Of a stretch of DNA of 64,000 nt, positions 2,271 through 33,696 are shown piece after piece. Where the stretch lies: positions 2,974,864-3,038,863 of the forward strand of contig NW_019091360.1 in the NCBI RefSeq assembly GCF_001949145.1, in the 5' to 3' direction. How positions within the stretch are numbered: position 1 is the stretch's first letter; each line of letters starts with the position of its first letter. Under the pieces are notes generated by a model that made no database searches, was not told where the DNA came from, and worked only from the letters and a program-made list of their open reading frames with translations. Source of the stretch: Acanthaster planci (taxonomy: Eukaryota). The translations under genes and the position numbers were made by a program.

Positions 2271-2343
2271 CCGCTTGAGAAGCACCCCCTCATCGGTTGA
2301 AAAGAGCCATGTTGGTCGGGAGTGCTCATTTTGTCATTAGCGA
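2271..2343 (+). repeat. Dispersed repeat family 2, partial copy
   Basis: CCGCTTGAG.AGAAGCACCCCCTCATCGGTTGAAAAGAGCCATGTTGGTCGGGAGTGCTCATTTTG core, shared with five other loci. Confidence 0.7.
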
Positions 2344-4186: not shown

Positions 4187-4362
4187 CTCCTTGAGTAGAA
4201 GTACCCCCTCATCAGTTTGAAAAGAGCGTTGTTGGTCGGGAGCGTTCATTTTGTTGGTAGCGACGCGCATGCAAGTCGTTCGTGAACCAGCAAAGTTCAG
4301 TTCTGACCAAAGGAGCCTAAGTAAATAGCGCCCTCAAGCTCTTGGTCCAGCTTGAGGCCCGT
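4187..4362 (+). repeat. Dispersed repeat family 2
   Basis: Same core plus the 3' part ...GAACCAGC..AGTTCAGTTC.GACCAAA...AGCGCCCTC..TTGGTCCAGCT. Confidence 0.7.
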
Positions 4363-4471
4363 AAGGCAGTTCAGTGATTTCTAACCCGATTACAGTTGAT
4401 GGAAGACAAATCCTGGTGCTGATCCAAGTAGGACTGGACAGATTTTCCAAGAAAAAAAAAATTCAACTTAC

Positions 4472-6093: not shown

Positions 6094-6240
6094 TTCTGAC
6101 TACGCACGGGAGCTCTGCGCCGCAGACGTTCAGCCGCCATTTTGCCAAATCCCAGCAACAAGCCGCTGAAGACAGCGCACGCGCAGTCCCAGACGTTCGA
6201 AAACTAGTACACCACCTCCTTCGGTTTCGATTAAGATGCA
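6080..6240 (-). promoter_or_regulatory. CpG-rich promoter-like segment with two YY1-type AAAATGGCGGC motifs
   Basis: GCCGCCATTTT occurs at about 6086-6096 and 6133-6143 inside a locally GC/CpG-rich patch, next to a first-exon donor site. Confidence 0.45.
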
Positions 6241-7959: not shown

Positions 7960-10900
7960 TCAGTCCCCCTTGTCTTTCGGTTCAATGACGTTCTTCTCTG
8001 GGTTGTACTTGACCGACATCCTACAGGGGAGGGAGCTCACGTAAGCTCTAATGATGAAAAATAAGTAAATAAACGAGTGAAAGTTTCAAAAAGTCACAGC
8101 ATACTGAAGCTAGCAAAGGGTGCTAATGTTCCAAGCTTTACACTCATCTTACATACTTCATCTATGAACTGAAGTATAGGTCTTCTTATATCTACTTCCA
8201 TTAATGGCTTGGCAAGATGTGATGTATTCACAGTTACAAGCGATAATTACTTCTAATACAAGTCACAATTTTGGGGAACTTGAGACTTGACTCAGACAAA
8301 AATGACTTGTATAATTTGACTTAAGTTTGACGTGGAAGAAATTGACTTAGTACTTGACCAAATTCGATTTGTTGATATTACCTGAAAGTTTGTCGAAATA
8401 AAATACAAGAAACAAGATACAAAAAAGCAATTCTGTCTGACCTCGTAATACTGATGTCTTATTACAAATATCAGCATATAATGATGAAAAAATAGACAGA
8501 AAAACAAGGCACTTCATCAAAGAATGTCAGAAAGTGCACAAGTACCATTTCAATTGTGACCTCAGACAGGCCTTTAAAAATGACTTTAGAACTTGATTTG
8601 GTAAAGGTGACTTGTGAATTGACTTCGGAAGAACTGACTTTCGTCTTGACTTGGGAGAAATCGATTTCTGACTTAAAGAAAAATGACTCTGTTGCAACGC
8701 AGTAAGCCACAGCCTTATAGGTCATGGTGAATGCTTGACTGTTTTTTTTTCAAATTCCGTGGACGATACATCCACAGTGAACGATGGCATTAAGCATTGC
8801 TTAACCATTAGAAAACTGATTTTCTGTGACCAAATTCATTTCTTCTGCACCCCCGAAGAATGAAGACTTTTTTCTACTGTAGAATATTGACCTGGACTTA
8901 CCGTTAGAGGGCGCCAATGGTCTTTTACAGGAAGTGAGTACAACTGTCATTGAACTGTTTGTCACCAGTATTACGATATCGTATCCCACATTCAAGCTGC
9001 AATAGCATTGTCTACTGACCTAGCCATCTGTTCCGCTTCCTCGATGCTCTCTGAAACGTAGTACACGTCTTGGTACTTGTCCAGATCAATATCCGGCAAA
9101 GACGCTGCAGCCTCAATCTCAAGAGGGCGCTTGACCGCTTTATCCGTGAACACGTGCTGGAGTGGATGGTATAAGATTTCACGTCAGTGTCATTTTCATC
9201 AAGAATTCATATAATTAAAACGACTGCAATTATTCCCACGCCAAAATGACGTAATGAATAAAAGTTTTGGGCGCGTCGGTTGGTAGACCCCGATGGAAAA
9301 TATTTGGCTTCAAACTGCTTCCGCGAAAGGACTGTCACGGATTTGCAGCATGGACTGAATAGTTGAACCGTTGAATTCCAACCTGAATGGACCCTCAACA
9401 GATGGTGCTGTAGCCCGAAGTGGACTAACGGCAAACACTTGAGATTTGAAAATAGTGAATCCCCAACTACTGCAATCTGTCTGCAAGTATAATGGGGGGC
9501 GTTACCTCGAGTTCGTTGGAGCCCGAAAGAAGCAGAGCACCGTAAGCTTTGACCTCTGACCCCTCCCGGCACAAACCTGCCTCAACCGTGCTCATGTATA
9601 CCTGTTCAAGAAGGTGGTTATGTTATAGTTAACGCTTAGTCAGCAGCTTATCAGACGATTGCCCCATGCTAAGAATCCTCTTTGAGCAACCGTGACGTCA
9701 CATTTGGAGAGCCATGGAAGGGTTCTACAGGATGACTTGAGTGCTAGTTCATTTACAATTGGCGGTGAAGCTGAACTACATCAATATAAAGTGAACTGTT
9801 ACATACTATTTGTGACGGTGCTGTGGAGAAAGGAGCCCCAGTAGAAATGTTGCTTTTAAAAGAAATTACTGAACGTGTGACTTACTGATGCGATTTTATC
9901 CAGAATATGGTCTGGAGTACCCAGCGAGGCAAGACCAATGTCCTGGCGGAAGGAAGCAGACACAGGAAATTGAATAAGAAGCACCTTGATTTAATCTCCA
10001 TCGACGTGCTGCTGAAACAACATATGAACTTCACAATAGTCTGTGTTCGAATTCACAAACGAATAATTCGGTAATTAAATTTTTTTGTTTCTGTTATCCT
10101 TTGTTCGAACATGAACCGAATTAACCTTTCTCTTGTCCAATATTAAACCTCGACATCGTTAACTTCCATCCCTCGGAGTTCTTAGTGGTAACTGTAAACA
10201 GTCACGCTCAAACAAGAAGTCGCTCCTATTCTGCGTGCACGTTTGTTTTTACGAACCGCTCTTGTCTTGTTTGACGAATGGCAAATGGCACGGCTAAATT
10301 TAGAGAAAAAATTCTGCACGGCTTCATAAAGCAAATACCATTGATTCCCGGTCAAGGTATAGAATAAACCCCATATGGCACGAATAGTAAACACCTGTAT
10401 GCGTCTTTTTTATTACACACGGAGTTAACAAACAAAGCAGCAAACTGAATAAACAAAGAGGCTTTTTCAACCCAATTAGCATCAAATCTCCCTGAAAAAA
10501 GTCAGAGATACCGGTACCCACAGCGTATCGTGTCACGTGGGCTTCATTTCAATACTTCTCTCGCAACAATCGACCAATTGACAATGTCTCTGTGTAAAAA
10601 CCCATGAAAAAGTATTTACTGAAACCATGATCAAACATATACAATGACATCGAAGAAATATGACCAAATACCACAAATTAACCTGAAGTGGGCAATGTTG
10701 ATGATGATAATTTCTCTTTCCCGCTTTTAATTTCCACAATTCATGGCGATCTAAAGTATTAAAATGTCTGCAGAAAGCTCTGGTAGTTACGGGCAATGAA
10801 AGTTTTGGCATTCGCAATGATTATGTGCATATTGATATCGTTTTTCGAGACGTAACTTTAATGTGATTCTTCAGCCTGGAGTGAAAAATGAAGTGATCGA

Positions 10901-13900
10901 TTTTTCCCACGTCATAGCTATCCCTTGCAGTTCGGACTTGCCTGTGAAAACTGGGCGAACTCAGCGTCGCACAGAAGCACGGCGTGTCCGAGGATCTCAT
11001 GAATAACATCCCTACGAGGAAAAAAGAAGATCAAGGCGAAGTCCCTTCTGAATAACAAGGAGGACGACACCAAAATAGCAGCAAAACAGTCATTATCAGC
11101 CCCGAGCAGGACCAATAGAGGGCGCAATTTTTTTCTAAGAAACGCAGACTCCTCTGGTCGGAACTGTATATTTCGCTGTTTATGAAATGCTCGCGTTATG
11201 GTCGCATTGCTTCCAACAAAATGAACACTCCCGACCAACATGGCTCTTTTTAACTGATGAGGGGGTGCTTCTGCTCGAGGCGGAAAACGAGAAATAAACA
11301 TGCAGTTAAAATACATGTACACAACTACGACGGCGTCTAACAGCAACAACTTCAGGAGCACGGTAGCTCCTTTTCGCTATTATCATCAACAGAACATCAA
11401 CATCAACAACAACAACAACTCAGTTTCTTTGTAACCCAGTTGCCTTATTAAGGCTGAATCTCCCGGAAAGAAACGAATAATTCTGCTTCTAGTTACATGC
11501 ACTAACTATTCCTTATTTGTTGTAATGATGATAATTTGTAATGTACAAAAAATGAAAAAAACGTTGCTTCTCGAGAGGCTTGGTTGACCGAAAGTTTGCC
11601 TTTACACCCAAGTGTTTAAATAGTGGATTATTTGATCTGACTTAGCCCAAGTAGATCGACATACACGTTGTAAAATGCTGTGACCGCGATCGCGTCACTT
11701 GATATTTCCAGCTACAAGGGAATATTAGATTTTGTTATACTTACGGCTCATTTGTGAAGAAGGCCCCGTCACCATGACGCACATACTGTGAAGAGCAAAA
11801 CACGCGAAATGCGAGAGCAGCCAGGAAGTCACGCGGTGTCATGAAAGTAGAAACGGGGCGAAGTCGGAAACCAGTTTTTCCTGCCGATTTAAACAATCAG
11901 TGAAACTAATGAATGAATTTTATGTTGCTTTGAAAAAAAATTAAGTAAAAGCAACAAATAACTCGACTCATGGCAGAATTGCTTTAGTCTACTCAAACTA
12001 TATTTAGCTTAATTTAAACAACATGCAAAAGTTTGGAATTTCCAAATGGTAAAAATACAAACAAAAAAAAGAAACAAATTCCCAACTTTTTGAGCCGGCC
12101 AAATTAAGGCAAAGCGACTTTCCATTTTATTTTTCACAGTCACAAAGAGTTGCCGATGATTTTATCGAGAACCAGCCTTTTCGACCAGTTCTAACGAGCG
12201 CAAAAAAATGAGAAAATCAAAATGACAAATTCGAGTACAGATGTTTAAACATTTCTAAGTAATAAATGAATCTGCATAGTTACTTCTCAAGTAATTAGAC
12301 ACTTTCTCCAGGTCTGGAATTCGGTGGGCGGATATGTCGCACGCTTCCAAAAAGGGTGCCAACAAGTTGTTGAATTTAGTACAAGCGTGCATGGGGTAGA
12401 GAAGCATCAGTCTGTTGTACGTTCGGGCCCATGTCTCCAGTTGGCTCGCCGGGTAGATCATCGATGGAATGGGTGTGCCGCTGAAATGTACCCAAATCAA
12501 TGAATTTTGCATTTTAGATGCTACCATTCTCCAACTGATGTCATTTCACGGAATTCCAACTCAAATCTAGAGAGTGCCCTGCCCCGCATAAAAAGGTGCA
12601 TGCAAAAACTGTTCATTTTAAACCTAGAAGTTAACTGATGGTTCCTTCACAGGCTCTAAAGAAGAAAGTGTTAACTTGAGGATACTTTCTTACTTTTATA
12701 TCATTTGATTATGGCGATCCAGAGTTATGCCTCTGACCCGCTTAAAACGTCGAACTTCTGCCGTGTCCATAACGGTGCAAGGTTTTAATTAGACACGGCT
12801 GAGAGTCGACGTTTAAAGCACTTGCTAACTTTCTGACGGAAGTTTGACAGGTCTCGTGGCTATCAACAGCAGGAGAGCGGCACGGCTTCACACGCCACAT
12901 ATCTACCGTGTGTAATTTAATTTTGGCATTACCATATTCCAAACTGTAGTGGTATCATTTGAAAATGCGCGTGCACCTGCTGCAGTTGTTTTCGTTTCGG
13001 CATCAAATCCACTGTAACATTTTCCTCTTGGGTTTTCCAAAACCCGTTTTGGTGACTGACCCGCCCCACATGTCATGTTTCTGATGATGGATTCACAAAC
13101 CTTTTTAAACAAACTCCACAACAAAATGGTCAGTTTCATGCAACAGCACGATTATAATCTCCACTAGCGAGTCTTTATAGATCCCCAACCTATACCTTGG
13201 AGATATTGGAAATTATATGGGCCAAAGTGTTTATTCTAAATCGTGTGTAATGCGAAAGACAGGAATGTCCAAGGTTGCTCTTTGAATTATTTTTCTGAAT
13301 TGGTATTCAGCCTCATATTTATAGCCAACCTGCATTTTGGACTAAATCTCTGACAAAATCAGCGGAGGTTGTGAAATTTCTTTGAAAGGAGGAGCAGCGG
13401 ATGTATCAAACAAAATAATCAAACCTGCCCTTTTTATAATTATCACCTGCAATACATTTGATCACAGAAAAAAATCTTTCGTGTCTCGTTTCCTGGTGCA
13501 CCATGTTGGAAAAAACCGCATTACGTTCAACAGAAAATTGACGTTTGAAGCAACTGCCCAACTTTTGTCGCTTTTATGTCAATTGCAGCTAATAGAACTA
13601 CACACAGCAGAAGTCGATGTTTGGAGCGATCCTCGGTACAAACATAAGCCATCAAAACTTTACGGAAACACTGTATAAACTGTTTGCTCTGATGCCATGT
13701 ATTTCTCGGGGGCTTTTTTCTATCCGGAATCTGTGATTCTTAGGTCGTGCCCGAAACCGGCATTTCCTCAGATACGGCTTACTCACCGCGGTCCGATCAA
13801 AAAACAAAAACAAAAACAAAAGCTATACGCCAAGTTAAAGAAAACCATCAAATCTGCAGCGGCGGTAACAAGTCATTATTTGCAAGTCCAAGCCAAGTCA

Positions 13901-16813
13901 CGGGTCATTTTTTGCAAGTCCAAGTCAAGTTACAATTCATGAGCTGGTAATTGCAAGTCAAGTCACGAGTCACAAAAATAGCGTCTTGAGTCCAAGTCAA
14001 GTGACTCGAGTTACTCTGCAAATCAGGGCGACTTCATAATCATATGTCGTACCAAAAAAATCATTCCTTGAGACCGAATTTAGAGCAGATGCATCGTGTG
14101 CAAAAGGCTGTGTAGCTCAAATATATTATGTTGCAACTGCATCTCAGCCCAACCTTACATTACCTGACTCCACTTATCCAAACCAATTACAAATAAACCT
14201 GTACCAACACAATCCTGTTGTATTCGAAACAAGGAGGGACAGAGAGGCCTATAAAAATGACGTTCAAGAACTGAGCATTTGGTTCTCGTTTTGTAACCGC
14301 AATATGTCCACTGTTTGCTAATGAGAGCTAAAGGGAATGCGAAACCCCGGTGCATTTCATATTTACACAAACAATGCAGATTACCTTACAATAAAATCAA
14401 TTGTCAATGTTTAATCATCAAATGAAGACAAAAGGTAGAAGGTTATTTCAATAATGTTTGTATATGTTGCCTTGAAATGGTATAATATTAATATTGATCG
14501 CTGTGCTTGTTCACGTACAAGGGTCCCAGATGGTACTGAATTAAAAATATGCAGAAAGAAGATTACATTTTTTATGTACTCGCGGAAGGAGATGCTTCAT
14601 ACATACATTCAAGTTCTTTCAGGCGTAGGAGTCGATGGCAGTCGATATAAGTATCCAAAAAAAGGAAATCTCTACTTCATAAATATTAATATTTACTGTA
14701 ATTTTATGGTTACGTCTTCACTTCCTAATGTGCTTTATTATCGAAGACAATGACGTATGGCGTGGCCTTTAAAATCAGTCGAGTCTGCCATCAGTTTAGA
14801 ATTTTGTTTTCAGCCTAATGTCAGAGCATAGGGAATGCACATAAGAATGCCAGAATGAGCAATGCAAAATTGACGTTCCTTGGGAGGCTGTGAAGAAAGG
14901 TTTTTCTATAAATTGGGGGTCCAAAAGTGTGACATTTTTGTGTTCCGTTACACCGGACCTGTGTAATTTGACATGACCATATCAGTGAAATTGATTTCAA
15001 ACTATGTCAAGTTGTTTGGCAGGAAATTTGCATTAATTCGTCACTCTTGAAAATCAGATAATTTGTTCTGAACTTATTTAAATCAAATATCAGATGTGAC
15101 AGGGACACGAAAAAAATCAGACCCCTAATTTATAGAATGACCCATAACCGTGTGCTCATAAAAACAGGACAGAGCAGTTCGCGCATTTTATTGACTTCGA
15201 AAATCACGCAGTAATCCGCTTCATGCTCCGCCTATAAATGTCGCAGATGCAAACCTCAGCCAGAACAAAATGAACTCACAGCTTGTAGGTTTTCGTCACG
15301 AGTTGGCATTTCCGTCGGAAGCTTCGATATTTGGCGTCGTCAAAGCCCTGGAGAGAAAAAAAACCAGAGAAGATTCTCTGATAACAAAATAGTGCATGAC
15401 GAATTTGTAAGAGTCAACTTCAACCGGTAAAACTTAGACATGCCGAAAAGAAATCAAATTAAATTATTGATGAGTACTTTTACAGAGCGACATATCTTGC
15501 TTTGTTTTAAAGTTCTTTTTGCGTTGCAGTTCGGTACGCCAAAATGACAGACTATATCATTAAAAAATCATTAAAAAATTAATGTATTGTTACAACTCCC
15601 AAAACATCCAAAGTGCGCAACGACAGCGTGCGTTACACATCGACATTCGGAGCAACATGGTAAATACCCAGGCAAAAGTGTTCATGAAAACCTAACTGAA
15701 TTAGAAATGGCAGATATTTAAGCGGTCGTATCTGTTCCCTTTATTCGAATAATGAGACGGAGATTTTCTACGCACTGTACTACAGCCTTGAAACCCTGAG
15801 CGTGTTTTATTGAATATAAAGGGAACAAATGAAATATTGAGAGCACAGACCTTTGAACCGACAAATGTAACCACGTACATAGGTAAGATCATGTTGGTTT
15901 CTTTTGTGCATTAACAGTGTGATGATCGAGAGTGTTAATGAGTTAATTGTATACATTATTAACCGTGCATGACTGGAAGATGTCACAGAAATGGTGGTAG
16001 GTACAAAGTTCAGCGAATGTAGGCGAATAGTATGAAAACACTTGTATGCTTTGGAGGCAATGAGCTACAGGTCCTAATTCAAACATATTTTATCACTACC
16101 ATTTACGATTGACAGGCCAAAAATTAAAGTCGAACTGTCAAACAAGGTTCTTTACACACCTTCACATTGGGCTGGATGACGTCGTACACTTCCCTGGTCA
16201 AGGAGTAGTCTAGCTCGGCAAAGTTTCTTGGAAATTCTTTCGAAACGAACCGGAGGAAAAATATCATAAGCTGAATGAAAATACGCACGGTAACGCGCTT
16301 TTTTTCTGTCTGTAGGTTTTTATTGGGTTTCCGGGTTTGGGGGCTATTTTCTCATTCTCCCTCTGAATTACTTGAGTTTTTTTCAAAGCTACAAATCTAC
16401 CAGTACAGGGTACAGATCAAAAGGAAAACTCCTGAAAACCTGTTATCAAGTTTTCAATCAGCCAACGTGTGGTCAGGAGAACAGTCGGTGTGGTCGGTGC
16501 AAAGATCGGTTAGTCCAAACGATATGGTTCTTTGCCCTGGTTGGGAATTACAGGGTTACCTAAAGCAGCAGATCGTCCTCAAATCATCAGATTTAAATTT
16601 GGTAACCCAAAACAAAGATACCTGACAATGATTGTCGAGAAAAAAAATGCAACTTTGGGGTCGCATTTTGGGGGACTCGCCATGTAGGAAAAAATGTGGC
16701 AAATCTTGGAAAGCCTTGGCTTCTTTACGGACAGTAGAGTACCTACCAACTTCGTCAGAACCATCGGCAACTGGGTGGGTAACACAGCAGCTGTCGTCTG
16801 GAAACTCGGACAT
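7960..16813 (-). CDS. Divergent aromatic amino acid hydroxylase, catalytic domain only (copy C), 10 coding exons, about 330 aa
   Basis: Exons in transcript order: 16747-16813 (MSEFPDDSCCVTHPVADGSDEV; least certain), 16160-16236 (EFPRNFAELDYSLTREVYDVIQPNVK), 15280-15347 (GFDDAKYRSFRRKCQLVTKTYKL), 12284-12480 (GTPIPSMIYP...HAC...IPDLEKVSNYLR), 11745-11880 ([45 protein letters not shown]), 10942-11011 (DVIHEILGHAVLLCDAEFAQFSQ), 9886-9942 ([19 protein letters not shown]), 9506-9601 (VYMSTVEAGLCREGSEVKAYGALLLSGSNELE), 9020-9156 (HVFTDKAVKRPLEIE...KYQDVYYVSESIEEAEQMAR), 7960-8047 (AYVSSLPCRMSVKYNPEKNVIEPKDKGD*). Exon sizes 68/197/136/70/57/96 match PAH exons 5-10 and the same exons in copies A and B. 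Total 993 nt in one open frame. Confidence 0.88.
11100..11284 (-). repeat. Dispersed repeat family 2 (reverse orientation, intron of copy C)
   Basis: Reverse complement of the family 2 core. Confidence 0.7.
13857..14015. repeat. CAAGTC-motif repeat, probably a DNA transposon end; related patch near 8230-8400
   Basis: Multiple CAAGTC/CAAGTCCAAGTC motifs. Confidence 0.45.
14899..15144. mobile_element. MITE with TTCTATAAATT.GGGGTC inverted ends (intron of copy C); related partial copy near 41442-41620
   Basis: GGTTTTTCTATAAATTGGGGGTC...GACCCCTAATTTATAGAATGACCC. The internal sequence recurs in intron 11 of copy B. Confidence 0.6.
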
Positions 16814-16930: not shown

Positions 16931-17196
16931 CTATCTTAATACCTCTCAGATGATGGTGCGCACCGTTGGTCGACACGAAGACACTTCTTCGCTATGACCA
17001 CGTCAGCGACTGCGGTCCTTGCTGTCCGTGCTCGAGATGACTAACTTTTGGCCGTGTGCGCCGTTTCGACTTCGGTCCAAAGAAACCCCGCGACGATCGA
17101 GCGTTCCACCGCAGCAGGCAGGTCGGGTAAATAGCAGAAGCTGTCGGCAGCAGCTGACTCTGGAACCAGCAAATGAACGCTGCCTTTGATAGGCCT
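16931..17196 (-). other. Probable non-coding 5' exon of copy C
   Basis: GC-richer segment bounded by a tag acceptor and an ATAG|GTGAGA donor, with stops in all three frames. It lies just upstream of the ATG-containing exon whose acceptor is at 16823. Confidence 0.4.
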
Positions 17197-18263
17197 ACAT
17201 GACAATATATATGGGACGAGCGGTGCACCCGTTAAAGATGGAATCACCTGGCTTATGCAACAAATGCACAGATAAAAGCAAAGCACACATGTGGAGATGC
17301 TGTTCAACTCAATCGGAATCAATTTACATAATGGTGTGTACAAAAAAGAAAGACACAGGAAGCAGTTAAATACGCCGACAGTGAAATCAATTGTGAGAGA
17401 TAGGCTATTTGTGTTGGTTGTGTACTTGACCGCTGCGTCCAGCCCCCCTCCATTACCAGTTGCGTAAAAAGTGACCGTTATCCTGCGTTTTATTTAATTA
17501 CCTCTAGTGGTCGAGCACCTGGATCATATTCTCTCAATACAGGGATCTCTCCACAGGAGGGGGCGTGTCTCGCCTCATCGTTTTCAGTACGGTGCTCACA
17601 AAAACCGGCGACATTACAACACTTCACAAACAGCTAGTATTGCCATGCATCAGAGTGATACTCAAACGGGCCTGACAGATTTCGAGTCTAGATTTTAGTG
17701 GAACCGTAGTGCTGAGGTCACTACGAGAGCGAACCAGCCCATTTGGGATTGAAAGACTGAGCAGTGCAGCGCCGCAGAATCGATTCGGAGTTCAGCTTTC
17801 CGTTCAATCTGTACGGCACATTTTATTTTCAACAACACGGCTTCCCACGTACCAGCCTTATGAAGTGTAAAACAATTATTAGCTTGTAAAAGCCAACGTG
17901 AACGGTCGAATGTTTGGCTACCTTTAATAAATATTGATCTAGACTTTGGGAAGCAAATTTGACTACGTCTATTTTCTAGTACAACAGCTGTTCCGTTTGG
18001 GCCCGTTGCGGGCTTGTAAAATTAGTCTTCTAATACCGCCCTTTACACTTTTATTCCTTTATTAAAACAAAAGATTTCAATTAAAAAAGCCCTCAGTTCG
18101 ATCCGCCTCGGACTTCCATCCCACGCTAAAAACCAAGGTGCTAAATCCAACACTTGTTGAGTTGTGGTCAGTAAAAAGTCTTTGAAAGTGTTAAATCCCA
18201 TCACGCTGTACATGCATATTAAATCCAATATTTTATATTTTAAATACAGTATTTAACTATTAA

Positions 18264-20282: not shown

Positions 20283-23200
20283 TCAAGACACTTTGTCGAC
20301 AGCACCGATCAGGATGTTCAAGTCACCTTAAGGAGAAAAGAAAAGAGCGACAGATATTTTGAAAAGAGAGAGTGAGATGAAGAGGGATGAAAACTATCAA
20401 TGAGCATAAACTCGAAATGAATCCCCTGTCATTGTTAGTGGTTCATCAGTTCGTTGCTGATGCATGGAAAGGAAAAACTTCTGCCGACGCCCAACATGAT
20501 AAACATGCCCGCGGGAACACATATTTCTTAGGGGGTGCTCAGCTTGTAAATAAAATTTCAAGTCCAAGACCACTCAGCACGTCATATAAGCTTGTGTTTC
20601 AACTAGGCTAAGGTTTTTATATCAAGCTGTGCCGTAATTTGAGAGCACCAAAATGCGACCATTACGTCGCGCGCCCTGGTCGCGCGCTGCTTGCACAGCG
20701 CGCCCAAGCCAAATACCTGTAGTCTGGATACCAGACCCGGTGATTCCAACTATTCTCGTCGAAGACTTTTTATCAATGCAGCCTTCTTTGGGCAGGGAAT
20801 AAGACTGCATAGCCAAACAAAAATTGGCTGCGTCCGAATCTGTTGTCTAGAGCTAGGTCTAGGACTTTGCTCCTTAGGAAATATAGCCTACATTGTTGAG
20901 ACACCAAGACATTAGACCTAGCCGTAGCTCTGGAAGCCCGTTTCGGACACGGCCTCTGAACGAACGGACTCCGACATGAATATGCAGATATTTGACTGGC
21001 GTTCTGTGCTCTTGAGAAGTGTATTGTTTAAGAAAAAGTTACACTGCTAATTGTAATCATAAAAATCTAGGGTTTTTGGTGGATATCTGACATTGGTGAG
21101 TCTAATTATGTTTGTGGCTTAACGTGGTCAAAGTTGGGGGTGCTATGTTGCATACCAGAACCCCCATCCAAAAACCTAGGGGTGCTTCAGCACCCGAAGG
21201 CCCCCTCCCCCGTTTCCGCGGGCTTGATGATAAAATAAGAGAAAGGAACTAAGGCTTTGTCCCACTGTTATGGCTAGGGCTATATAGGGGCACGACGTGC
21301 GGCTAATGGCCCGTGGCTGCATGCGGCCACTTCCCATGTGCTACTCGAGCAATTCGTCATTCGATTTAGACACGGCTTGACACTCTGATCCGGCTTATCA
21401 GCTTGTGCAGCCAGTTTATGGCTGCACAGATGCATGAACTGCATCATGACGGGGTCGGCCGATTCGCATCATAAAGGCATCAGTGGGCGGGGGGGGGGGG
21501 TAATTGGAAACCCTCCTTTGTGAATCTGGAGACAGACGGCCGATCACAATAACTGATGCCTGCCCTCGTGCTTTCCTCCAAACTGCTAGGCTTGGCAACC
21601 AAGCCTTGGCTGGAGTCCCTGAATCTGTCACTGAGAAGTTGGCCAACAAAATGGGTGCCCAGACATCATGAGCAACTCAAAAGAAGTAGAAGTTTGTACA
21701 AAACAAACAGGCAAGTACATACAGGGACACTGGTGGACGAGTTGAGAGATGGGGATTAATTGAGTGATAGAAAGTATAAGGAGGAGGTTCAGTGGTGCTA
21801 AGGCAATGAGTCAGTCCGGTCTGTTTCACTTTATTCCAACTGCTTGAGCATCGATCCGTAATACCAATGGTTTGAGGGGTAGGCCTAGTAGGGAGAGCTG
21901 AGGAAAGGTGAACTTGATGGAGAGTCGGATCTGAGACAAGGTAGACAAGGAGGACAGATTAATTATTTGATCGTCATAAAGGTAATGCAGGGTGGAGAAG
22001 CAAGACGGGCAACGTGATTTACCTCGGATAGACTGGGCCAGCTCCTTCAGCTGTGTCTTCTTCTCCAACACCTCCACAGACTGGGTGTAGGGATCGTAGC
22101 GGAGCAAGAAGGGCCGTGGTATGCTGGAGGTATACTGTCTGTCAGTGAAGATAAGTAGAGCAATTAACACTTTCCTATCGTGTTGCCATGGTGATGGGTT
22201 CAAATTAATCAAGTTCTCAATACAGTCTCTCAGAAGTCAATCACAAGTCAAACAGTCTCAATCACGTCAAAAGAAAATTTTTTTATATGGTGGTTTTGAA
22301 AAGTTATTATCACTGCCTAAAAGGCAATTGCACAAGTATTACAAAAACAAAATTAAAAAATCTCTAAAAGGAAATCCATGAAGTGACATGAACTTGAACA
22401 TGAACTATTAAAGACAAATTAACAAATTACCAAAATGTTTACCTGTACAAGAATCCACATCTCCTGAAGAGAGCCATCATGGCAATGAAATTAGCTTTTA
22501 TTAAAGGGCCTAATTAGTTCTGTTCTGAACAAATCGTGAAGAAGACAATTCTCTGTTAACTGGTGATCCTCTGTGACTTTATAATCATCTTCCGACTCAC
22601 TTGTGATCCCAGTATGTTACACAGTTTCACCCTTCTTTGGTATTTATGTCTTTTAATTTCCTTCTTTATTTCCTTTTATTCATCATCAAATAGTGAAATT
22701 GGCGTAACTTTTGCCTTCAGCTATTGTCATGTCTTTTATCTCTTATCCGTCCTTTGTTTTCGTCTAGTAGTTGCTCGCGTTGTTGTTCTTGTTAGGTCTT
22801 ATGTCTCAAAGGCTATTTTTTACAAGTCTTGGCTTATTCAACAGCGTCATGCTCTTTTCTTTTCTCATTTGTACATGGACTACTTTTTCTTTATCTCATC
22901 AAAAGTTCATTAAAATGTTCTTGTTTTTCACTTAGCATCTGAAAAACGTTTGTGTACATCCACTTTGCTAATTTCAATATACCGAGTTTATTTAATTATC
23001 AATGTATTTTCCTAAGTTTATCCATTTTCTTTAATTCCTATGTAACTCAATGATTGACGTATTTTCTGAACAAGGGTATGGAATAAAATGGCTTCTTGAA
23101 ATTGAAATTGATTCCAGTCTTTCGATGATATCATTGCTCATTGAAGCTTATTAAAAATTAATTCACCAATCTTGGCCTCAAATCGAGAGGCTTATTTTTT

Positions 23201-26200
23201 TCATGGAAACCTCCTCTATGACAGTACCTCATTTTATTCTTGGCGTCTTCAAAGCTCTCTGCTATGAAGTAAACTGGCTGGAAACCCTCCACGGGGTACT
23301 TTTGCACCGCCATCTTAGCCGGGTCGAAGGGTTTGAGTTCGGGCTTGTCAGTCAGACAGTACTGGCAGACAGGGTTGGTTAATGTTCAAAAAGTAGTGAA
23401 AATAAACAGGAATGCCAAACTGTAGCCTAACAGGGTTGTTGTCGTCCCATTCCTTGCATTTGGATCTTTTTTGGCCGATATGATGAGAAAGAATAAGGAA
23501 GCAATATGTTGGTTGTCACTTCATTAAGAGTCATCACTCTTACAGTCCGTCCGTGGTGCTGTTTATCAAGCTGTCTGTTACCTATCTGTCATATGTTTGA
23601 TACACTGTAAAAACTCGGGTGTTAAAATCAACACTTTTGGGTGTTATCAGATGACCACACCATAGGGTGTTGCTTTAACACTGATGATGTTACTTTGCAC
23701 ACCTATAAGTGTTACAGTGCACTAGAAGGTGTTACAAGTAACACCAAAATTTCAACACTAGTGAAAAGTGTTGGTGTAGCCTTCTGAAAAACCGTGGGTG
23801 TTACATTTAACACCCCAGTTTTTGTAGTGTAGTCTTTCACATCCGTTCTAGTTGAAATTAAGACTTGTATAAACCAACTAAACAACTTTTGTTTGTTTAT
23901 GTGCTGTTCACCAAATGTCGAAGGATACACATTAGCACGGCAGAAAAATGGCCCTATAGAGCCACCAATGTGGTCAATCCAGGATTTCTCTCCTGGAGAG
24001 ACCTGTGTATGTTCTTTTAGTCTTACCTGCAGTTCCCCGAAGGAGGACAGCAGCCCAGCACCGTATGCTTTGCGTTGACCATTCTGAATACACATCCCGA
24101 ACTCCACAATGAACCAGTAGCACTGACCATGCGTGTGGGGGGGGGTTGGTAATAATCCAAGAAGATTTTTAAGCTTACTAATTCCCTAGTATTGCATACA
24201 TACAACGATTTCTATAGATAACCAATATTGGCAGAAACTATTATTTTATTAATAATTTTGTTAACTGGTACACTCTAATACCTGATGCTTTCCCGACAAA
24301 CGTTCATCCCGAGTCAAGGACATCAGGAGTTCCTTACAGAGCACTTTTGAAAAGGTCAACTAATGATAACTTACTGTTGACAGCTTTTCTAAGTATTCGT
24401 CAGGTGCACCAAGAGAAGCTAAACCAATATCCTGAGAGTAAAGGAGAAACAAGTCAAGAAACAGTATAGTATCAACCAACAAGGCTTGCCAGGCAAGTGT
24501 TTATCTCCAACCGTCCCGAGCATTAAAGCCAGTGATAACTTTTCTACACAAACCCATTAATCGCATGATATCTCCTGGCATATAGTGGTAACCATTGCAT
24601 TTTTAAATGGAAATATGCACATAACACTAATAAAAAAAACCTAGCTTACTCACACACCAACTGGATTGGAACATTGGACCCTCTGCTCACAAGTAACAAC
24701 CACACTCATTTAAACCTTCTGAGGGCGGGTTCAGACCCAACGCGGAGGGGGCGAATTCGATTTTTTGACGGACAACAAATTTGCAATTTTTATGACCTCT
24801 GTCAAAGGTAAGTGAAACACCTTCTGCTTGGTTCCTTTGACATGGCCGCGCTGCCCCCATCTATCAATGTGCAAAGTGGGCACTTAATTATTCTGAATCA
24901 AATGCTTTTTTCTGTTTTCGAGAATCATTTTTTCACTTGCGAGTTGGAAACGAACAAAAGCGAGAATTATACGCAAAAAGAAATCGCATCCTGAAATCTT
25001 ACCTGCGAGAACTGGGCAAAGTTGGGATCTGCAAACATGGGCACGTGTCCAATCAGCTCGTGGCAAATGTCACTGGTGATAACAAGAGATAATGTCAGTC
25101 CGTTCGGTATTCCAAGAGTGGAGTCCCCACATGAAGTGCGCCCGAGGTTCGTTCCGGTGCCACGGTCTGCGTGTGTGCATCAGTGTGGACATACGCCGAC
25201 CTGCTTGAACCTCCAATGACCATGCCTTTTGAAATTTACCTATCTGGCTCATTATCCATCAATCTGTGACAAGTTTAGGAAGTCAATTTTTTAATTTTCT
25301 CATTTTCAAATATCTGCCGGTATCGTAACTGTATTCTTCAGAGAATAAGTATTTGTTCAAGTGGTTATTGTTTTATCATTGAAGAGGTGCCATTCCCCTC
25401 AACAAAAATTTCTCCATTGTTTTGTTGAACGTCACAGCTATTCCCCTCGAACGTTGCAGCTTTTTTATCGAAAAGGTTAGTGTCGATGTAGACTCACGGC
25501 TCTGGTGTGTACCAAGGGTTGGATCCGTGCCTGATGTACTGGCTACAGTGGAACACACGGAACGCCAAGGCAGCAAGGAAATCCCTTGAGGAAATCAATC
25601 CAGCCGATGGGCGGAGGGTGAATCCAGTGCGATCTGGCCATTGAGGGGAAATTTGACCAAAAAAATCAACTAACAAAACACATATAGTCACTTCGCTGAT
25701 TTTTTTCAAAATGCATTCTTGCTACGGCGTGGGCAAACTCGAAATTGCTACAAAACATCACCCCAGGCAACAATCTGCTTGCTGGCTGTCAAAAAGCTGT
25801 TAGATTAGTGTCTTTAATGAATCCCTCTGCTCTGTACAGATGCTGAGGGTGAGCATGTGCTTTACCTTTGAGGAAGTTTGAGACATCTTCAAGTTGTGGA
25901 ATGTTGTCCTCTCGGTAGCCACAGTTCTCCACCAGGAGAGGGAACATGTGGTTGAATTCCCGGCAGGCGTGGGTGGGGAACAGCTCGGTCACCTTGCCAA
26001 ACACGGTGCCCCAGGTCTTGATCTCGTTGATCGTGTAGGTGACGCGGGGAATCGGGGTCCCACTGGAAAAGGCAATAAGACAAACGATTTGCATATGAAC
26101 ATTCACTTTTGTTTGGAGAAAGAATTAGGTTAATATCTAATGTTGGACAGTGATATTAACTCCAAGGTACTCACTATTTGTAGTTGAAAGCAATGTCAGC

Positions 26201-29200
26201 GAATTCTTTGCGCCTGGCGTGGTACGCAAGATCAGCGAAGCCCTGTTGAAGCAATATGGGTAACAAGTTAATAGACCTATACTAAACAAATTCGGCTGTC
26301 TTCCTTTTTCAAAATCACCAGAATTTACATAATTTCATAACAATGGAAATCAAACAAAAATTAGTGTCATAATAGTTTCAAAGATCACACACACAGGTCT
26401 GTAAATTTTAAACCAAATTTATCTAAACCGAAAATTATGTTCACAGTGGGCATTAGTCCGAAATTTGCGTACTTGCTTATTTTCCTGTTATTCTGATGAG
26501 ATAGATTAGTGAACAAAATAGCTGCAAATATAGGCCACGTTCACTGAAAACTTTTCAAAGCAACGAACACAATGTTTGCTACAAGATAAGGTAAGAGCTT
26601 TAATATTGTTAATGGCTAATGCATTTAATAGATTGCAAATAAATCAATTTGCTGAAGCTACTGATAACAGAAGAGCTTGATTTAATGTCAGACGAAAGCA
26701 ATCACACTACAGACCGTGTACCAAGTGTTCCCGAAATCGTGTGTTTTAGTCAGGTGGCGCTGATTTCTATGTGCAACGGTTATCGACAGAGATATTACTC
26801 CAGTCCAAAAAGAGGATCATGAGATTTTTAGGTGTTGCCTGGTGGTCACAGAGAGGCAGACGAGTCAAAGCCGACTATTTTTCCCAGCAATATGCGCGCA
26901 CAACGCCGGCCGAAACACCAGAGGGCACATGAAAAGTAGGAAAGTAGCGTGAAAGTAGGTCACACAGTGAGCTTCTGGAACCCTCGCGCAGCCCGTCTAT
27001 GGGGCGTTTATTTGGGACTGCCCATCACGTTCTACAATGTCTGGAAAAATGTTTTCCAATTAAACCATCCTAAGAAACACTTTTGTCGGAATTTTAGCTT
27101 TGAGTTCAAGAAATATTGTGAAAAAATTACCTGCAGATGTGTAAGAAACGAATTTCATTAGGTCTAACGATCTCCCAACGCCGGCACTATTGTTGCTGGG
27201 TCTAAGTGTTAAACCGTTTGCTATCACGTCATGCACTTACATGAGAACAAGAACGTATGACTTCGTGAAGATTTACCTCCCTACAGTCGATGGGTTCTAA
27301 ATTCAGTCGGGCTGACCTGGTGGAGTTCTTGTCAAAAAAGTTTAGATAACACTTCAGAATTTATCCAATGTAGATCATCCCTTCAAATTCATTTCCTTCA
27401 AACTCTGCTAAAACTAACTTTGTTCTCCTGTTTATTTCAATCGTTATACCTTACGGCTATCAGGAAATAATATCTTAACTTTTCTGTTGCGTACGAACAC
27501 CTTGAGTTGCACTGGTCGTTATGTATTTTTTAGAGTTTCGGAAGTGAGAGGTCAGTTTTGGCGTCAAACGTTTCTTTTAGCTTCAATAAATTAATATATT
27601 AGTTAAACTTTTACACAGACAGTTTATGGAGTCGATTTTTTAAGTAAATGAATGAAAAATAAATGCAAAATTCATGCACATTATCTGTCCAGTTCAAGGG
27701 TTTCGGTAACGCGCCATCAGGGTCAACTTGAGGCTCTATTCTCATTATAAAATACCAAGAGTCGATCGTATGAGGGCGTGCTCTGCATCCTGTGCGTTGA
27801 GCTCACAGACATAATTATAAACTCATAGACTGCCACACCGCATTCCAAAACTGTACATGAACATTTCGTGATATGCACCGCGCCCAATTAAACTCAAAAC
27901 AATCAAATTCACCCCTCAGTATGGATAATTTACGCAAAGGTGAAGAATTCCATCCTGGAAATTCTATAAAACCATTTTTCAACTCCTTTATAGTCCTCTA
28001 TAGTCCACATGGATTCAAAATAATGCGGTTGGCAACATTTTGAAACAAGGTGCAGTGCAGTATCGAACAAAAAGCGAACATATTTTGAGAGCACAATGTA
28101 AACAAATACAAGTGTATCAGGAATAGCATACAAAGCTATCTTGACAGCCTTCACTTTCAAAAATCAGCGTTGCAGATCGGCCATAACTCATCCAATTTCG
28201 AGGTGTCCCAAACGACAGGAGTATGGTATATGGGTCTTTCACTAAGGGGTGCTTCCCTTCAACTCGAATGAGTGTGCATTCGGCATGAGCTCTGGGGTTA
28301 GGTGCTCTTATTGGGGATACGTTCTGCCAGGCAGAAGGACTCCGCATCCGCCTTGAGCAGAAGCACTCCCTCATCGGTTGAAAAGAGCCATGTTGTCGGG
28401 CAGTGCTCATTTTGTTGGTAGCGACGCTGCTGTAAAGTTTGTATGTCATACTCGTTTGTGAACCAGCGAAGTGCAGGTTCCAGCAAAGGAACTAGACTGC
28501 ATGGTTCCGTTCCGTTCGTAGTCTCCGGACGTCTTACAGTCGTCCTCCTAACGTAGGGCCTGGTAGCGAGTAATGAATCCGGCAGAATTCTGCCGGGTGT
28601 AAGTAAATGAGGAAACGATGCGCGCTCAATGTACAAATCCTCAAGCAGGAGCTGATAGCATATTTTGCTTTTTTCCTCTTCGTTATCGAAAATAACCATA
28701 AATTATTCATTTATCTAGAATTTAGAACGATAACCACTGATTTGAAATAAAATGGTGTAAAATAATTTATTGATGATAATCATTGAAAAAATACAATACT
28801 ACACCGTGATCAAAAGAGGCTTAGCAAAGGACAGGTACTTGTGTTTTATTCACCTCTCTGCTTGAATGCGTTTCCAGTCAAAGGCTAACTGCTGTTGGCC
28901 CGACTAAAACTTGAATATTCAGCATCCAAATTGACAGGGCTAGCTACCGTCCCTATATTTTTTATAATAGGGACTGGGACCAGTCCACAAAGGACCCCCT
29001 TGCCTTTGCTAGGACAATTACGACCTCTTTTGCTCCAGCTCTGGGCTCATGATTTAATCAGCAAAACCGTTAGTTTGTACCTGAGAGTACACAAGATGCT
29101 CTGTTGTCTTACCGTTCATGGACCCCTTGGAAATCAAGTTTGGGCTCTCCATTGGAGTCCCCCAAACCAGCATTGTATCTTGACTGTTATGAGTCGTCCA

Positions 29201-32200
29201 AAGAGCATCTTTGGGACCTCATTTACGCTAGGAAGGGGTTTGGCCGTCGCATTACTGGCTTTACAGCGCAGTGAACCTACGATACGACTTCGTTAGCTTC
29301 TTTCTGTCGAATTTGCATAAATCAAACCGGCCAGCATCCTCTCAGGTGAAGCAGGAACAAGGAAGAAGTGCCAGGGATTAGTTTCTTCCACCTGCATACC
29401 CCATTCAATCCTAATTACTTAACCACGAGACGCCGACTCAACATATTTTAATGTAGAGGCATTATGCTACAAAGAATCTTCATTTCTTGTAGTTTGTTGT
29501 TTGTTTGTTTGTTTGTTTTTCTTTTGTTTTATAATTAACTCACTGGATAGTCCGCCTCGAAATCTGCTCCATATCCCACGATGCTCCGGGCAAGCGTATC
29601 CGTATCCTTGATCTTTCTCGGGAACCACGGGACTGGAAGGCGAGGTAAGCCGTCAGAAACAACCAAATCACGGGTCAAATCTACTAATGTGCTTTCTCCA
29701 AATTCCCTTTAATTTGCAGTTACTTACGCTGGGTGGGCCTAAAAAGGGTTCTACTCGTCTATAGCACACTCGTACCTCTGCAACGAAGGTTGTCTATAGG
29801 TTTATTGATAGATGGGAAATGAAACTGTAATCTTGTATTCCTCTCACTGAATGGTTGGAGTTATGCAATTTGCCCTTTCAGTTAACATGTGATACTTAAT
29901 TGGGATGGTTTCAATATAGACTTACTTACAGAATCTTGGCTGTAAATTCTTATTTGTTTAAAATTGGTAAAAGAGATAACAACTTGTGTTCTCTTTTGTA
30001 AAGCTGAGAGTGAAACCTTGATGCATCACTTTTGTACTTGTAAGTTTTCCACCTCTTTTTGGAATCAGATCGGAGATTGGCTTAAAAATACCCTGAACAC
30101 TGATATTTTTTGGATAACAAAACTACCCTTTTCGCAATTTATGATGATTCCAGAAATGTACTCAATTTAATTATCTTGCTTTGCCGTTTCCACATTCATA
30201 AGGTGAAAATGGTTTTGTGCACGATTAAACTCTTCTTCAGCGTATGAAAAGTGTTTGAAATCTTTTTGAAGTTTAGTGAACAGTAAAGTACACTTGCAAA
30301 ATAGAAGGTTTTCCAGGCACGCTGGGCCGCTGTCAGAGTGATGCAAATCCAGGAAGACACGGTTCAGTTGCATATGTTTAATATCAAGTTTTGAATCCAA
30401 ACTTGCCCTTGGAAATCATTTAAGAGAAAAGATGCTCGCTCGCTTATTGACATATACGAAAACTTGCTTGGAAATCTTCAATAGCGATGTATGAAAATCT
30501 AACAATTTTTTGCGCACAAATCAATGCAACATTGAGAGTTGGTGTTAGAACCACCAAAAGTACCATTACATGGTACTTTTGCGTATGGATATGCAAATTC
30601 ATATTAGCATAAAAATCACAAAGGCCACAAAATACAGGGGAAAAAAAGCAAAACAAAACTTCAATTTCATGGATTAATTTCAGTAATCTTTATCAACTTA
30701 ACATAATTTCTTCAACTCAGACCGACCCCTTCACTCATACTTGTGGGTATCATAGTTATTATCCTAACTTACTTACTTAGTAACTTACTTGTTTTTTTCT
30801 CTGAGGGAGGCGAAAGCACTTGGACATACTTTGCCTTCTCTTTCAGCTTATCCAGGACAGTGTCCAACTTGTCCGCCTTCTCTTCGCAGACTATCAGGAA
30901 TTCGTAGTCTCCTTTGTCTCGCTTGGACAGGCGAGACTCAATCAGCGACAAGTTAATGCCATACTCCTACAAGAAAATATGTGAACTTTGCAAATGTAGT
31001 ATGTTCTGAGCCAATATGGCTAAGAGGTCAAAGTAGAAGGGAGCACCGGTATTTCTCACAAGACTGGGTGGGATTCGCGACATGGCCCAAGTTTCAATGC
31101 GTTATGACAATATCCAAGCTTAATTTGATTTTTTTTTTAGTTTAAACATGGTACGTACCTCGAATATCATGAGAGTGCGAGCAAGAATTCCTACTTTGTC
31201 TTTCAACCCAATTACGAGAGCTGTGTGGCCATTCTCCACCGTCAGTTCTGAATTACCATTCTGCAGATGATCCTATGAATCAGATCCAAATTGACAGGAT
31301 GAAAATGACAGGGATATTAAAGGTTCGATATTTGAACACTATTGAGGACGTCGGGCAACTGAGTGCAAGGAGCTCAGACAGTTGCTTTCAACCAGACTCG
31401 ACGGTGCCCAAAGCATGCTTGACGACGCCCATGGTTGACGAATTAAGAATCTGAATGTTAATGTCTTTTGGGGTATGTGCGAATACCAATGGTACTATCG
31501 TGGATCGTGCGTTCTTGGAGCTTTTTTTTTTTTGGAGCTGGATAAGCCTGACATAGTTTGATTACGAATCCGCCCACTCAGAAACGTAATGTTAGAAAAA
31601 AAAGAAAAATCTTAGCATTTTTTTTATAACCAGCACGATTTTTCGTGGTTTTTTTTTAAATTCCCAACGCAGCGTTTTGAGTCAGTTTGAAAAAAAGTCA
31701 AAGTTATTTTCCCTTCATTGTACCAAAAGCACTTAGGCCTGTATACGTCTTTTAAATATAGTGTAAGTTAGGTGTGTAAGTGCATTTTTCCCGCCCTCCT
31801 AACTCACGATATTTCATACTATATTTGTAATCTAATAGAATAAAGAACTCTCGGCCATAGAGAAAAATTTTGAGAACAAAATCCCCATTCGTCCCTCCCG
31901 AGCCCTCACCCAAAACATGGATGACGGGCTTGGATAAGTTGGTTGGTAGGAATGGCGCACGTGCACCTGAAGGTCGTGAACCGCGCGAATGTAGCATGCG
32001 CAGAAAACTGCCATGGCACACGGACTTCATTTGTAATGCCTTAAATTAAACGCAGAGGTCATTGAAGCCACTTGTGGCCATCTTACCGCGCAAAATACAA
32101 ATGTAAAACAAAGGCTTTGCTTGCCGTTCGGATCATGGCATCAGTTGTTACAATGGCAAGCGAGCCAATTCACCATCACCTTGTATTCGGCACCATAAAA

Positions 32201-33696
32201 TGGCCGCCTGTGGCTTCAATTGGTACAATGGCAAGCGAGCCAATTCACCATCACCTTGTATTCGGCACCATAAAATGGCCACCTGTGGCTTCAATTGGTA
32301 CAAGGGCATTGCGAGTATAGCTGATCTTTTATGTGGCGTCCGTGCCCTTTAAACCACGTTCCCCATATCGCACATACTGCAGTGTAGGGGGCCTACTAGA
32401 AATATAACTGGTAAATTAATTTTATGCTGTTAAGAAACAGTGACTGCACGTATGACCAGCCATAGAGGTCATACTTTTCAAAACTGAATACTGTTCATTG
32501 CCTGCAGTTTGCCATTGAATTAGGACTCTGCCTTTACAAAACCATTTTATATACCCGTTTTTACCAATGTGAGGCACAGACCTTGCTCCAAGCTGGATCA
32601 TTTACGCCTTTAATACCGGCCTCACGCATAACTCGGCGAACAGCCTGTAGCAATCTGTCCCATAAACAAGCGAAGCGTGGCTGCGTATTTATATGGCACT
32701 GAGTTCAGAAAATTTACTGGAGGCCGTATATTTGGGGTGGTGGGGCTCCGGGGAAGCTGCATGGAGGGGACGTTAGGTTGGCCAGAGGGGTGATAGATGG
32801 TGACTGAGCTCATAGTATGGTCTGAGCTAATAGTATGGTCTGACTGGTTCAAGAGGTGCGTTTAAAATATGGGCGATTCACAATAATACGCCTCCAAGAG
32901 TTTGCAGTGCTTTGGCCAATCAAAACGTGCGAAATCTGTCGACCCAATGCGGCTTTGGAAAGGGTCGACATATTTTGCGCATTGTGATTGGCCAACGCGT
33001 TGCAAACTCTCGAAGGCGCACTACTGTGAATCGCCCGTTTTGGGGAGCAATCTTTCCTGTAAGAGTTGAAACGACTTTTTCATAGATGTGACCTGTAGAT
33101 ATGGGCAAAACCTGCTGGTGGGATCCGCAGCAAATATTTCAATAATTCATCGGCTTACAGGGAATGTGCGCCCGGCAACGATGACTGCTTCAAATTTTTG
33201 TATCAAAATCTACAGCCTAGGGCCTACAGTGTATTTTCCATACAAGTAATCTTTTTTGACATGCTGGAGCGAACTATATCAACTTGAGTGGGCTAAACCT
33301 CGTGCAAGGAGAAATGTCAGGTTGAAACTTGCATGACAGGAGAAAACGGTGGTACTAGATTAATAAAAATCTCCGTAACGGCACAAAAAACTGGGCAGCC
33401 TGAGATAAGAGCGAAAATGGTGCACTCAAGAAGCAGGAGAGCGGGTATAGGGGTGTGGTCGTGCTGTATTACCATGTGCTGAATTAACAAATTCAACAAA
33501 GTGGCACAAGTCATGAAAGCTAAGAATAACAAGAAGACAGTACCAACAAGAGAGCCCATGGGATGAGTACATCTTGTAATAGTATGAGCCAAGGCAATGG
33601 GGAAGAGGCATCTACTAAATCTCAACTTACCGTGCTGGATCTCAACAATCTGCTAGATTGAAACCCTCGTTTCTTGTCAGCCGAGCCGCAGTCCAT
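20283..33696 (-). CDS. PAH: Phenylalanine-4-hydroxylase-like gene (copy A), 13 exons, 454 aa
   Basis: Exons: 33631-33696 ([22 protein letters not shown]), 31159-31272 (...[16 protein letters not shown]), 30789-30966 ([14 protein letters not shown]...), 29544-29632 ([11 protein letters not shown]...[10 protein letters not shown]), 26175-26242 ([23 protein letters not shown]), 25866-26062, 25498-25633 ([18 protein letters not shown]...YTPEP), 25003-25072 ([13 protein letters not shown]), 24375-24431, 24027-24122 (CYWFIVEFG...[12 protein letters not shown]), 23228-23361 (...KYPVEGFQP...), 22023-22138, 20283-20326 ([14 protein letters not shown]). All introns are GT-AG and the 1365 nt frame is open. 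It has the ACT domain, catalytic domain and C-terminal helix, with PAH-type W326 and V379. Confidence 0.93.
20826..20954. mobile_element. Short inverted-repeat element (MITE-like) in intron 12 of copy A
   Basis: GGCTGCGTCCGAA...CTAGAGCTAGGTCTA / TAGACCTAG...TAGCTCTGG...TTCGGACACGGCC. Confidence 0.5.
23603..23829. mobile_element. MITE with CACTGTAAAAA terminal inverted repeats and TA target duplication (intron 10 of copy A)
   Basis: TA|CACTGTAAAAACTCGGGTGTTAAA...TTTAACACCCCAGTTTTTGTAGTG|TA, with internal GGTGTT/AACAC motifs. Confidence 0.75.
28348..28490 (+). repeat. Dispersed repeat family 2 (intron 4 of copy A)
   Basis: Family 2 core sequence. Confidence 0.7.
29830..30190 (+). mobile_element. 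Non-LTR retrotransposon (LINE) 3' fragment with RT-associated zinc-binding region, in intron 3 of copy A
   Basis: Remnant reads W-F-Q-Y-R-L-..-RIL..N..LFK followed by [20 protein letters not shown]. It is broken by stops and frameshifts. Confidence 0.65.
32149..32303. repeat. 75-bp near-perfect tandem duplication (intron 1 of copy A)
   Basis: TACAATGGCAAGCGAGCCAATTCACC...GTGGCTTCAATTGG occurs twice, starting at 32149 and 32224, with one mismatch. Confidence 0.9.
32868..33038. mobile_element. Palindromic MITE family 1, copy 3 (intron 1 of copy A)
   Basis: GGGCGATTCACAATA...AGTG/TGTGAATCGCCC terminal inverted repeats with the same internal arms. Confidence 0.75.

Follow-up and report, generated by a model that had tools for sequence, protein, structure and literature searches.

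A conserved sea-star aromatic amino acid hydroxylase with a substrate pocket changed at the meta-determining pair of bacterial phenylalanine 3-hydroxylase

Introduction

Three aromatic amino acid hydroxylase genes lie in tandem on the minus strand of the window, by which we mean the whole 64,000-nucleotide stretch of Acanthaster planci DNA analysed (contig NW_019091360.1, positions 2,974,864 to 3,038,863). In the last of them, copy C, several residues that surround the substrate ring in PAH are replaced, and an initial annotation read this as an enlarged pocket with a changed substrate or regiochemistry, possibly meta-hydroxylation. The locus therefore raises the question of whether copy C is a working gene and, if so, what reaction its product performs. 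No paper on the gene or its accessions was found in the literature searched (most subscription papers lay outside its scope), and the main text of a family phylogeny (PMC10244343) does not mention Acanthaster, although its supplements or tree files may include the copy C protein.

Results

Gene structure and transcript of copy C

The features of copy C and its two neighbours are given below, with residue numbers following PAH.

7960..16813, minus strand: coding span of copy C, 10 exons, 993 nt, 330 aa; catalytic domain only
16943..17545, minus strand: two 5' untranslated exons (about 16943-17193 and 17502-17545), from X1 contig joints and splice signals
16747..16813, minus strand: first coding exon, a short N-terminal leader without ACT domain (upstream stop, Pfam)
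16160..16236, minus strand: lid-loop exon, 77 nt (89 nt in copy A), matching the PAH 118-147 region; Y138 region unconserved
11745..11880, minus strand: pterin-binding loop exon; G247T, L248F, L249M, S251P; F254, R270, T278, E280 and P281 kept
10942..11011, minus strand: iron-ligand exon; H285, H290, E286, P292V; GC splice donor
9506..9601, minus strand: pocket exon, 96 nt; W326M, F327S, E330, F331A, G346L, S349 kept, S350G, F351S, G352N
9595-9593, minus strand: W326M, by alignment to rat PAH
9578..9580, minus strand: Ala331 (F331A), at the position of C187 in bacterial phenylalanine 3-hydroxylase, by the published alignment and our own
9533..9535, minus strand: Leu346 (G346L), at the position of T202 in the same bacterial enzyme, by the published alignment and our own
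9523-9521, minus strand: S350G, by alignment to rat PAH
9020..9156, minus strand: loop exon, 137 nt; 377-382 loop (Leu379) and one inserted codon
7960..8047, minus strand: last coding exon, ending about 24 residues short of the copy B end; C-terminal helix absent
20286..33696, minus strand: copy B, a full-length PAH-like gene (P0123) with ACT domain; W326, F331 and G346 intact
40478..59450, minus strand: copy A, a full-length PAH-like gene, first exon unlocated; W326F, T278A

When joined, the copy C exons translate exactly to P0001, a 330 aa Acanthaster planci RefSeq record named PAH-like (XP_022104913.1). An in-frame stop lies 37 codons 5' of the first coding exon, with no in-frame ATG between them. 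A 2515-nt contig of run X1 lacks each of the nine coding introns as well as two 5' introns; that X1 is an RNA run is a guess, but the contig itself is spliced. It covers both of the exons on which the initial annotation was based, and its two listed coding differences from the window are synonymous. Of the 11 intron joints listed, raw RNA run X13 contains six, each supported by 1-3 reads, and raw-read runs X10 and X14 contain none. The spliced contig, the synonymous differences and the fact that Asterias orthologs share the pocket (see below) led us to reject sequencing error or a pseudogene, and copy C is a live, intact, spliced gene. The intron following the exon for H285 and H290 has a GC donor (10942-10941, minus strand), and this joint is present in the X1 contig.

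Both neighbouring genes have peculiarities of their own. Copy A carries W326F, the tryptophan hydroxylase residue, and T278A, at a substrate-anchoring residue (exons 43767-43672 and 46387-46252); it is otherwise the most PAH-like of the copies (70% to human), yet no plain PAH. Copy B has T328I, L249I, T266S and a diverged lid loop, with T266S and Asp305 in common with copy C. It is represented in X1 by low-depth fragments only, which give no ranking of expression because X1 was picked via copy C. Very deep coverage with loose ends was seen at about 11200-11290, 14900-15150, 18260-18410, 20830-20960, 23600-23750, 28340-28400 and 32890-33020. These stretches are short and intronic or intergenic, some with opposite-strand joints, and probably represent dispersed repeats, for instance small inverted-repeat elements. 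Assembly gaps occur at 35987-36246 and 46567-47018 (712 N in total), the second inside an intron of copy A. No biosynthetic gene was recognised by eye beside copy C among the 94 frames in 1-7600.

Domain architecture and fold

The only Pfam domain of the copy C protein is Biopterin_H (PF00351; 326 bits, cut-off 22.7), while copy B has an ACT domain as well. The protein also stops ahead of the C-terminal helix of other family members. This helix drives tetramer formation in the family, and the hydroxylase of the copy C clade is probably monomeric. The predicted model (pLDDT 91.1) keeps the PAH fold (TM 0.88) and matches the PAH ternary complex 1mmk with a Z score of 43.8 and an rmsd of 1.6 over 306 residues, two TPH entries lying within 1 Z. 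An atlas search returned family clusters only. By domain and fold, copy C is a member of the biopterin-dependent aromatic amino acid hydroxylases.

The active site

The pocket exon (9601-9506) encodes VYMSTVEAG...GALLLSGSNE. A gap-free alignment of this exon to rat PAH 324-354 confirms the four replacements first annotated there (W326M, F331A, G346L and S350G). Comparison with copies A and B likewise bore out the one-codon insertion in the loop exon (137 against 134 nt), which contains IDLDKYQ. The extra codon sits just ahead of position 377 and places Leu at 379. The residue at PAH position 379 governs Phe versus Tyr specificity; TH has Asp there, so the loop of copy C gives no pointer to TH-like specificity. 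Changes beyond those originally reported are F327S, F351S, G352N, P292V, P279N, Y277F, residues 246-251 and a lid exon 12 nt (four codons) shorter than that of copy A (77 against 89 nt).

Active-site residues of the family have been listed in several studies (the portions available of PMC8003416, PMC10586264 and PMC8790617). According to the first of these, Phe is positioned by H285, S349, R270 and T278 and its ring stacked by P281, W326 and F331; G346 and S350 belong to a water network required for substrate binding, and residues 247-251 are named as BH4 contacts. Copy C keeps H285, H290, E330, E286, F254, R270, T278, E280, P281 and S349. In place of the ring cage P281/W326/F331 with G346 of animal PAH, it has P, M, A and L, so that the animal cage is not preserved.

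The initial annotation expected two lost aromatic side chains to enlarge the pocket, which is partly right. With residue volumes taken from general knowledge, F331A (-101 cubic angstroms) and G346L (+107) sum to +6. Because these two changes cancel, the net opening arises at 326 and 350, and the net side-chain volume change is -88 cubic angstroms in copy C and -162 in the Asterias amurensis protein. The pocket is, judging from its sequence, better described as reshaped or re-aimed than as enlarged, with spare room at 326.

Orthologs in sea stars

Copy C has orthologs, 61-63% identical, in Asterias amurensis and A. rubens, which belong to a different order from Acanthaster; across the catalytic columns, identity in the clade is 63%. 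All three proteins have A331, L346, G350 and V292, as well as Leu at 379, and the Asterias proteins have the same cut-down architecture, ending at the same alignment column. They differ from copy C in having Ser at 326 (Met in copy C) and Asp at 286. The 2-His-1-Glu iron ligands H285, H290 and E330 are present in all three, as are R270, T278, P281, S349 and F254. At the pterin site, the alignment shows F254 kept, E or D at 286 and an altered 247-251 stretch. Since the Asterias orthologs share A331, L346 and G350, copy C is part of a conserved sea-star clade and not a decaying copy.

In a search with a two-sequence profile, the sea-star proteins scored 678-716 bits and the next match 296. Among the matches listed (the best 120 of 205, 120 of 530 and 150 of 2999), the clade occurs only in Acanthaster planci, Asterias amurensis and A. 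rubens. Outside the clade, P0229 alone scored very high among the 50%-cluster representatives listed (best 150 of 2999). It was rejected as an ortholog, being a two-domain flatworm tryptophan hydroxylase with 37-39% identity.

Rarity of the pocket changes

For a family background, 372 other proteins were aligned and the 351 with E330, G332 and G344 in register were used (21 dropped), a set biased to PAH and TH. None of the 351 has A331, L346 or G350. Position 331 is F in 335 and F or Y in 342, and G346 is present in 329. In counts uncorrected for kinship, G346 is missing in seven of the eight others with a non-aromatic 331, compared with 15 of 343 with an aromatic residue there. Such coupling fits a shared functional switch and may equally reflect packing compensation.

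At a broader scale, 116 positions are at least 95% conserved among 225 canonical matches. Copy C or the A. amurensis protein differs at 41 of these, and at 19 all three sea-star proteins have the same derived state (two positions being alignment gaps in each count). Such a pattern would fit an initial shift after which new constraint set in. Six further proteins of the family (P0267, P0294, P0314, P0323, P0334 and P0350), one of them named from Didymodactylos carnosus, combine a non-aromatic 331 (V, T, N or M) with Ala or Ser at 346 and keep W326. From these residues, they would be further candidates for altered regiochemistry.

Origin of the clade

Copy C is about equally distant from PAH, TH and TPH (42-44% identity). 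It scores 286-306 bits against the NCBIfam models of these enzymes, which have cut-offs of 655-706, although its shorter length lowers the scores. At eight of 16 positions that separate PAH, TPH and TH, it resembles none of them. Two free trees placed the clade outside PAH, TH and TPH, unjoined to copies A and B, with a stem length of 1.15 to 2.3 changes per column. When groupings were forced, p-AU was 0.33 with A and B, 0.084 with B, 0.070 with TH and 0.048 with TPH. Grouping with A and B is thus not rejected and that with TPH is borderline rejected, in a tested tree that left out eight of 37 rows and held no echinoderm TH or TPH. Given the tandem position of copy C, a PAH duplicate is the most likely, though tentative, origin.

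Discussion

Possible reactions of copy C

The initial proposal of a changed substrate or regiochemistry appears well supported by the residue comparisons, and these include specific evidence for its guess of meta-hydroxylation. Phenylalanine 3-hydroxylase (Phe3H) of Streptomyces coeruleorubidus has C187 in place of the ring-cage Phe and T202 in place of Gly (PMC7027792), and the portion of the supplementary alignment available equates them with human F331 and G346. Phe3H variants gave 100% (C187A), 80% (T202S) and 67% (T202A) meta product, and T202G/C187F, from earlier work cited in the same paper, was the strongest shift to para (PMC7027792). That A331 and L346, conserved in two sea-star orders, fall on exactly these positions is suggestive, not proof, of a meta-hydroxylase acting on phenylalanine or a ring-substituted phenylalanine. 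By this analogy, we put such an activity at not quite an even chance. Several points count against it. Leu346 lacks the hydroxyl of T202, which is credited with a part in the mechanism (PMC7027792), the bacterial proteins retain the W326 and S350 that copy C has lost, two members of the substrate-binding water network (G346 and S350) are replaced, and the joint change at 331 and 346 may be a matter of packing alone. Since 41 of the 116 conserved sites are altered, a coincidence at these two is also less surprising.

An active pterin-dependent oxygenase that works on some other amino acid, without a meta switch, is unlikely in our judgement, though it deserves serious weight. With the aromatic cage gone, it could attack a bulkier aromatic substrate, such as a halogenated tyrosine or tryptophan at some unusual position, or else a benzylic carbon or a side chain that is aliphatic or contains sulfur. 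The ability of PAH and TH to oxidise benzylic as well as aliphatic carbons counts in favour of this reading. So do the variation at 326 among orthologs (M or S), the net loss of 88 to 162 cubic angstroms of side-chain volume (by the same generally known values), and an aromatic 248 with Pro251 (two of three orthologs), which recall tryptophan hydroxylase. It is also consistent with the loss of F327 and with that of W326 and F331, which together with P281 are the three ring-stacking residues listed in the available part of PMC8003416. It leaves unexplained, however, why it is the known meta-determining pair that carries both conserved changes, and the eight of 16 separating positions at which copy C is unlike PAH, TPH and TH indicate no known substrate. 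It is improbable that the protein has ceased to hydroxylate amino acids and acts as an uncoupled pterin oxidase or as an iron-, pterin- or amino-acid-binding protein. In favour of this, Leu346 could obstruct the ring site, four codons are missing from the lid loop, the pterin loop is changed at the 247-251 BH4 contacts (PMC8003416, in the part available) and the clade has a very long stem (2.3 changes per column). Nevertheless, the iron ligands and amino-acid anchors are all intact in three species of two orders, the orthologs are 63% identical over the catalytic columns, and the coding differences in the X1 contig, albeit at two sites only, are both synonymous.

That copy C is simply an unregulated PAH, TH or TPH of drifted sequence seems improbable too. 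Databases name the proteins of the clade PAH-like or TPH1-like, the gene is in tandem with two PAH-like genes and the fold is unchanged, all as such a reading expects. It is at odds with the nearly equal distance to PAH, TH and TPH (42-44%) and with NCBIfam scores of 286-306 bits against cut-offs of 655-706, a gap to which the short length contributes. The near fixation of F/Y331 (342/351) and G346 (329/351) in the family argues the same way, and copy C has neither the Asp379 of TH nor the Phe326 of TPH.

A predicted meta-hydroxylase and its possible role

If copy C is a meta-hydroxylase, iron, pterin and oxygen would form the usual ferryl oxidant. Removal of the Phe331 ring would open space on one side of the substrate and the side chain at 346 would push from the opposite side, so that the ring of the substrate would rotate and present carbon 3 to the oxidant, as with C187 and T202 in the bacterial enzyme. 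Without Trp326, a ring substituent, for example a 4-methyl or hydroxyl group, would find space. Because Leu346 cannot do the job of the T202 hydroxyl, we would expect the hydride shift to be normal and the regioselectivity imperfect.

The product would be expected to enter a specialised metabolite, not phenylalanine breakdown. In bacteria, meta-tyrosine enables Pictet-Spengler ring closure (PMC7027792). Imbricatine, from the sea star Dermasterias imbricata, carries two meta-placed phenols on a tetrahydroisoquinoline, for which a polyketide origin has been suggested (PMC9103826, in the text available). Dermasterias belongs to the same order as Acanthaster, and a meta-hydroxylase with spare room for a ring substituent could, we infer, yield this phenol pattern. 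Fuscusine is a second sea-star isoquinoline; its name had zero occurrences in the literature searched. That literature, which included the accessible parts of PMC11050936 and PMC10820953, contained no report of imbricatine from Acanthaster or Asterias, and its coverage, with few subscription papers, gave no link between meta-tyrosine and sea stars. Our fullest proposal, a tentative one, is that an animal pterin-dependent meta-hydroxylase arose independently of the bacterial enzyme through changes at the same two positions and feeds alkaloids of the imbricatine type. Equally tentatively, copy C would then define a fourth, sea-star-specific branch beside PAH, TH and TPH.

Phenylalanine 3-hydroxylase had not been found in eukaryotes as of 2019 (PMC7027792), and meta-tyrosine in animals was treated as a product of oxidative damage in 2021 (PMC8707607, in the part available). 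If the proposal is true, an animal meta-tyrosine enzyme would alter the oxidation-product view, the same regiochemical switch would have evolved twice at the same two positions, and the meta-phenol pattern of sea-star alkaloids, so far unexplained, would gain a candidate gene in the host. Even without meta activity, a conserved and probably monomeric hydroxylase whose pocket has been rebuilt offers a natural test of the features that determine substrate and position in the family. The replacements originally annotated are part of something larger: copy C is a conserved, spliced, regulation-free sea-star hydroxylase with its pocket changed at the meta-determining pair.

Comparison with known hydroxylases

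Animal PAH (human, rat, and copies A and B) and copy C have in common the fold (TM 0.88), the iron ligands and R270/T278/S349, and six exons of copy A (68, 197, 136, 70, 57 and 96 nt) have identical lengths in copy C. Copy C differs in lacking the ACT domain and C-terminal helix, in its shorter lid and in its rebuilt ring cage; it is 43-44% identical to copies A and B, which are 83% identical to each other. Tyrosine 3-hydroxylase belongs to the same family and likewise reacts at ring carbon 3, as predicted for copy C, but it keeps W326, F331 and G346 and has Asp at 379, where copy C has Leu. Tryptophan 5-hydroxylase resembles the clade in its aromatic 248, in Pro251 (two of three orthologs) and in the lack of Trp326; its F326, Y248, F331 and G346 correspond to M/S326, F248, A331 and L346 in the clade, which therefore does not have the TPH pocket.

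To check the register with the bacterial enzymes, ten bacterial loci were fetched by a motif containing C187, their Phe3H activity being assumed from likeness. All ten have Ser or Thr at 346, have lost P292, and keep W326 and S350. One of them, an Actinocrinis Phe3H-like protein (L003:946-1788, plus strand), has Cys331/Ser346 and a 377-383 loop unlike that of the other nine. Copy C is 26-30% identical to the ten proteins and 41% identical to human PAH, which speaks against kinship with the Phe3H group. Given these identities and the six exon lengths shared with copy A, the match to Phe3H is convergent, and horizontal transfer from bacteria was rejected on the same grounds. Likenesses to the Phe3H group (Phe3H, SfaA, NpsK and SsaX) comprise a small residue at 331, a side chain at 346, the loss of P292, Asp at 378, an aliphatic 379 and a protein consisting of the catalytic domain only. 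Asp is also tolerated at 286, being found in Phe3H and Chromobacterium PAH, as in the Asterias orthologs (PMC7027792, available part of the supplement). The two nevertheless differ in the residues themselves, Ala331 and Leu346 in copy C against Cys331 and Thr346 (Ser in SfaA) in Phe3H. Copy C, moreover, lacks W326 and S350 and is an intron-containing animal gene.
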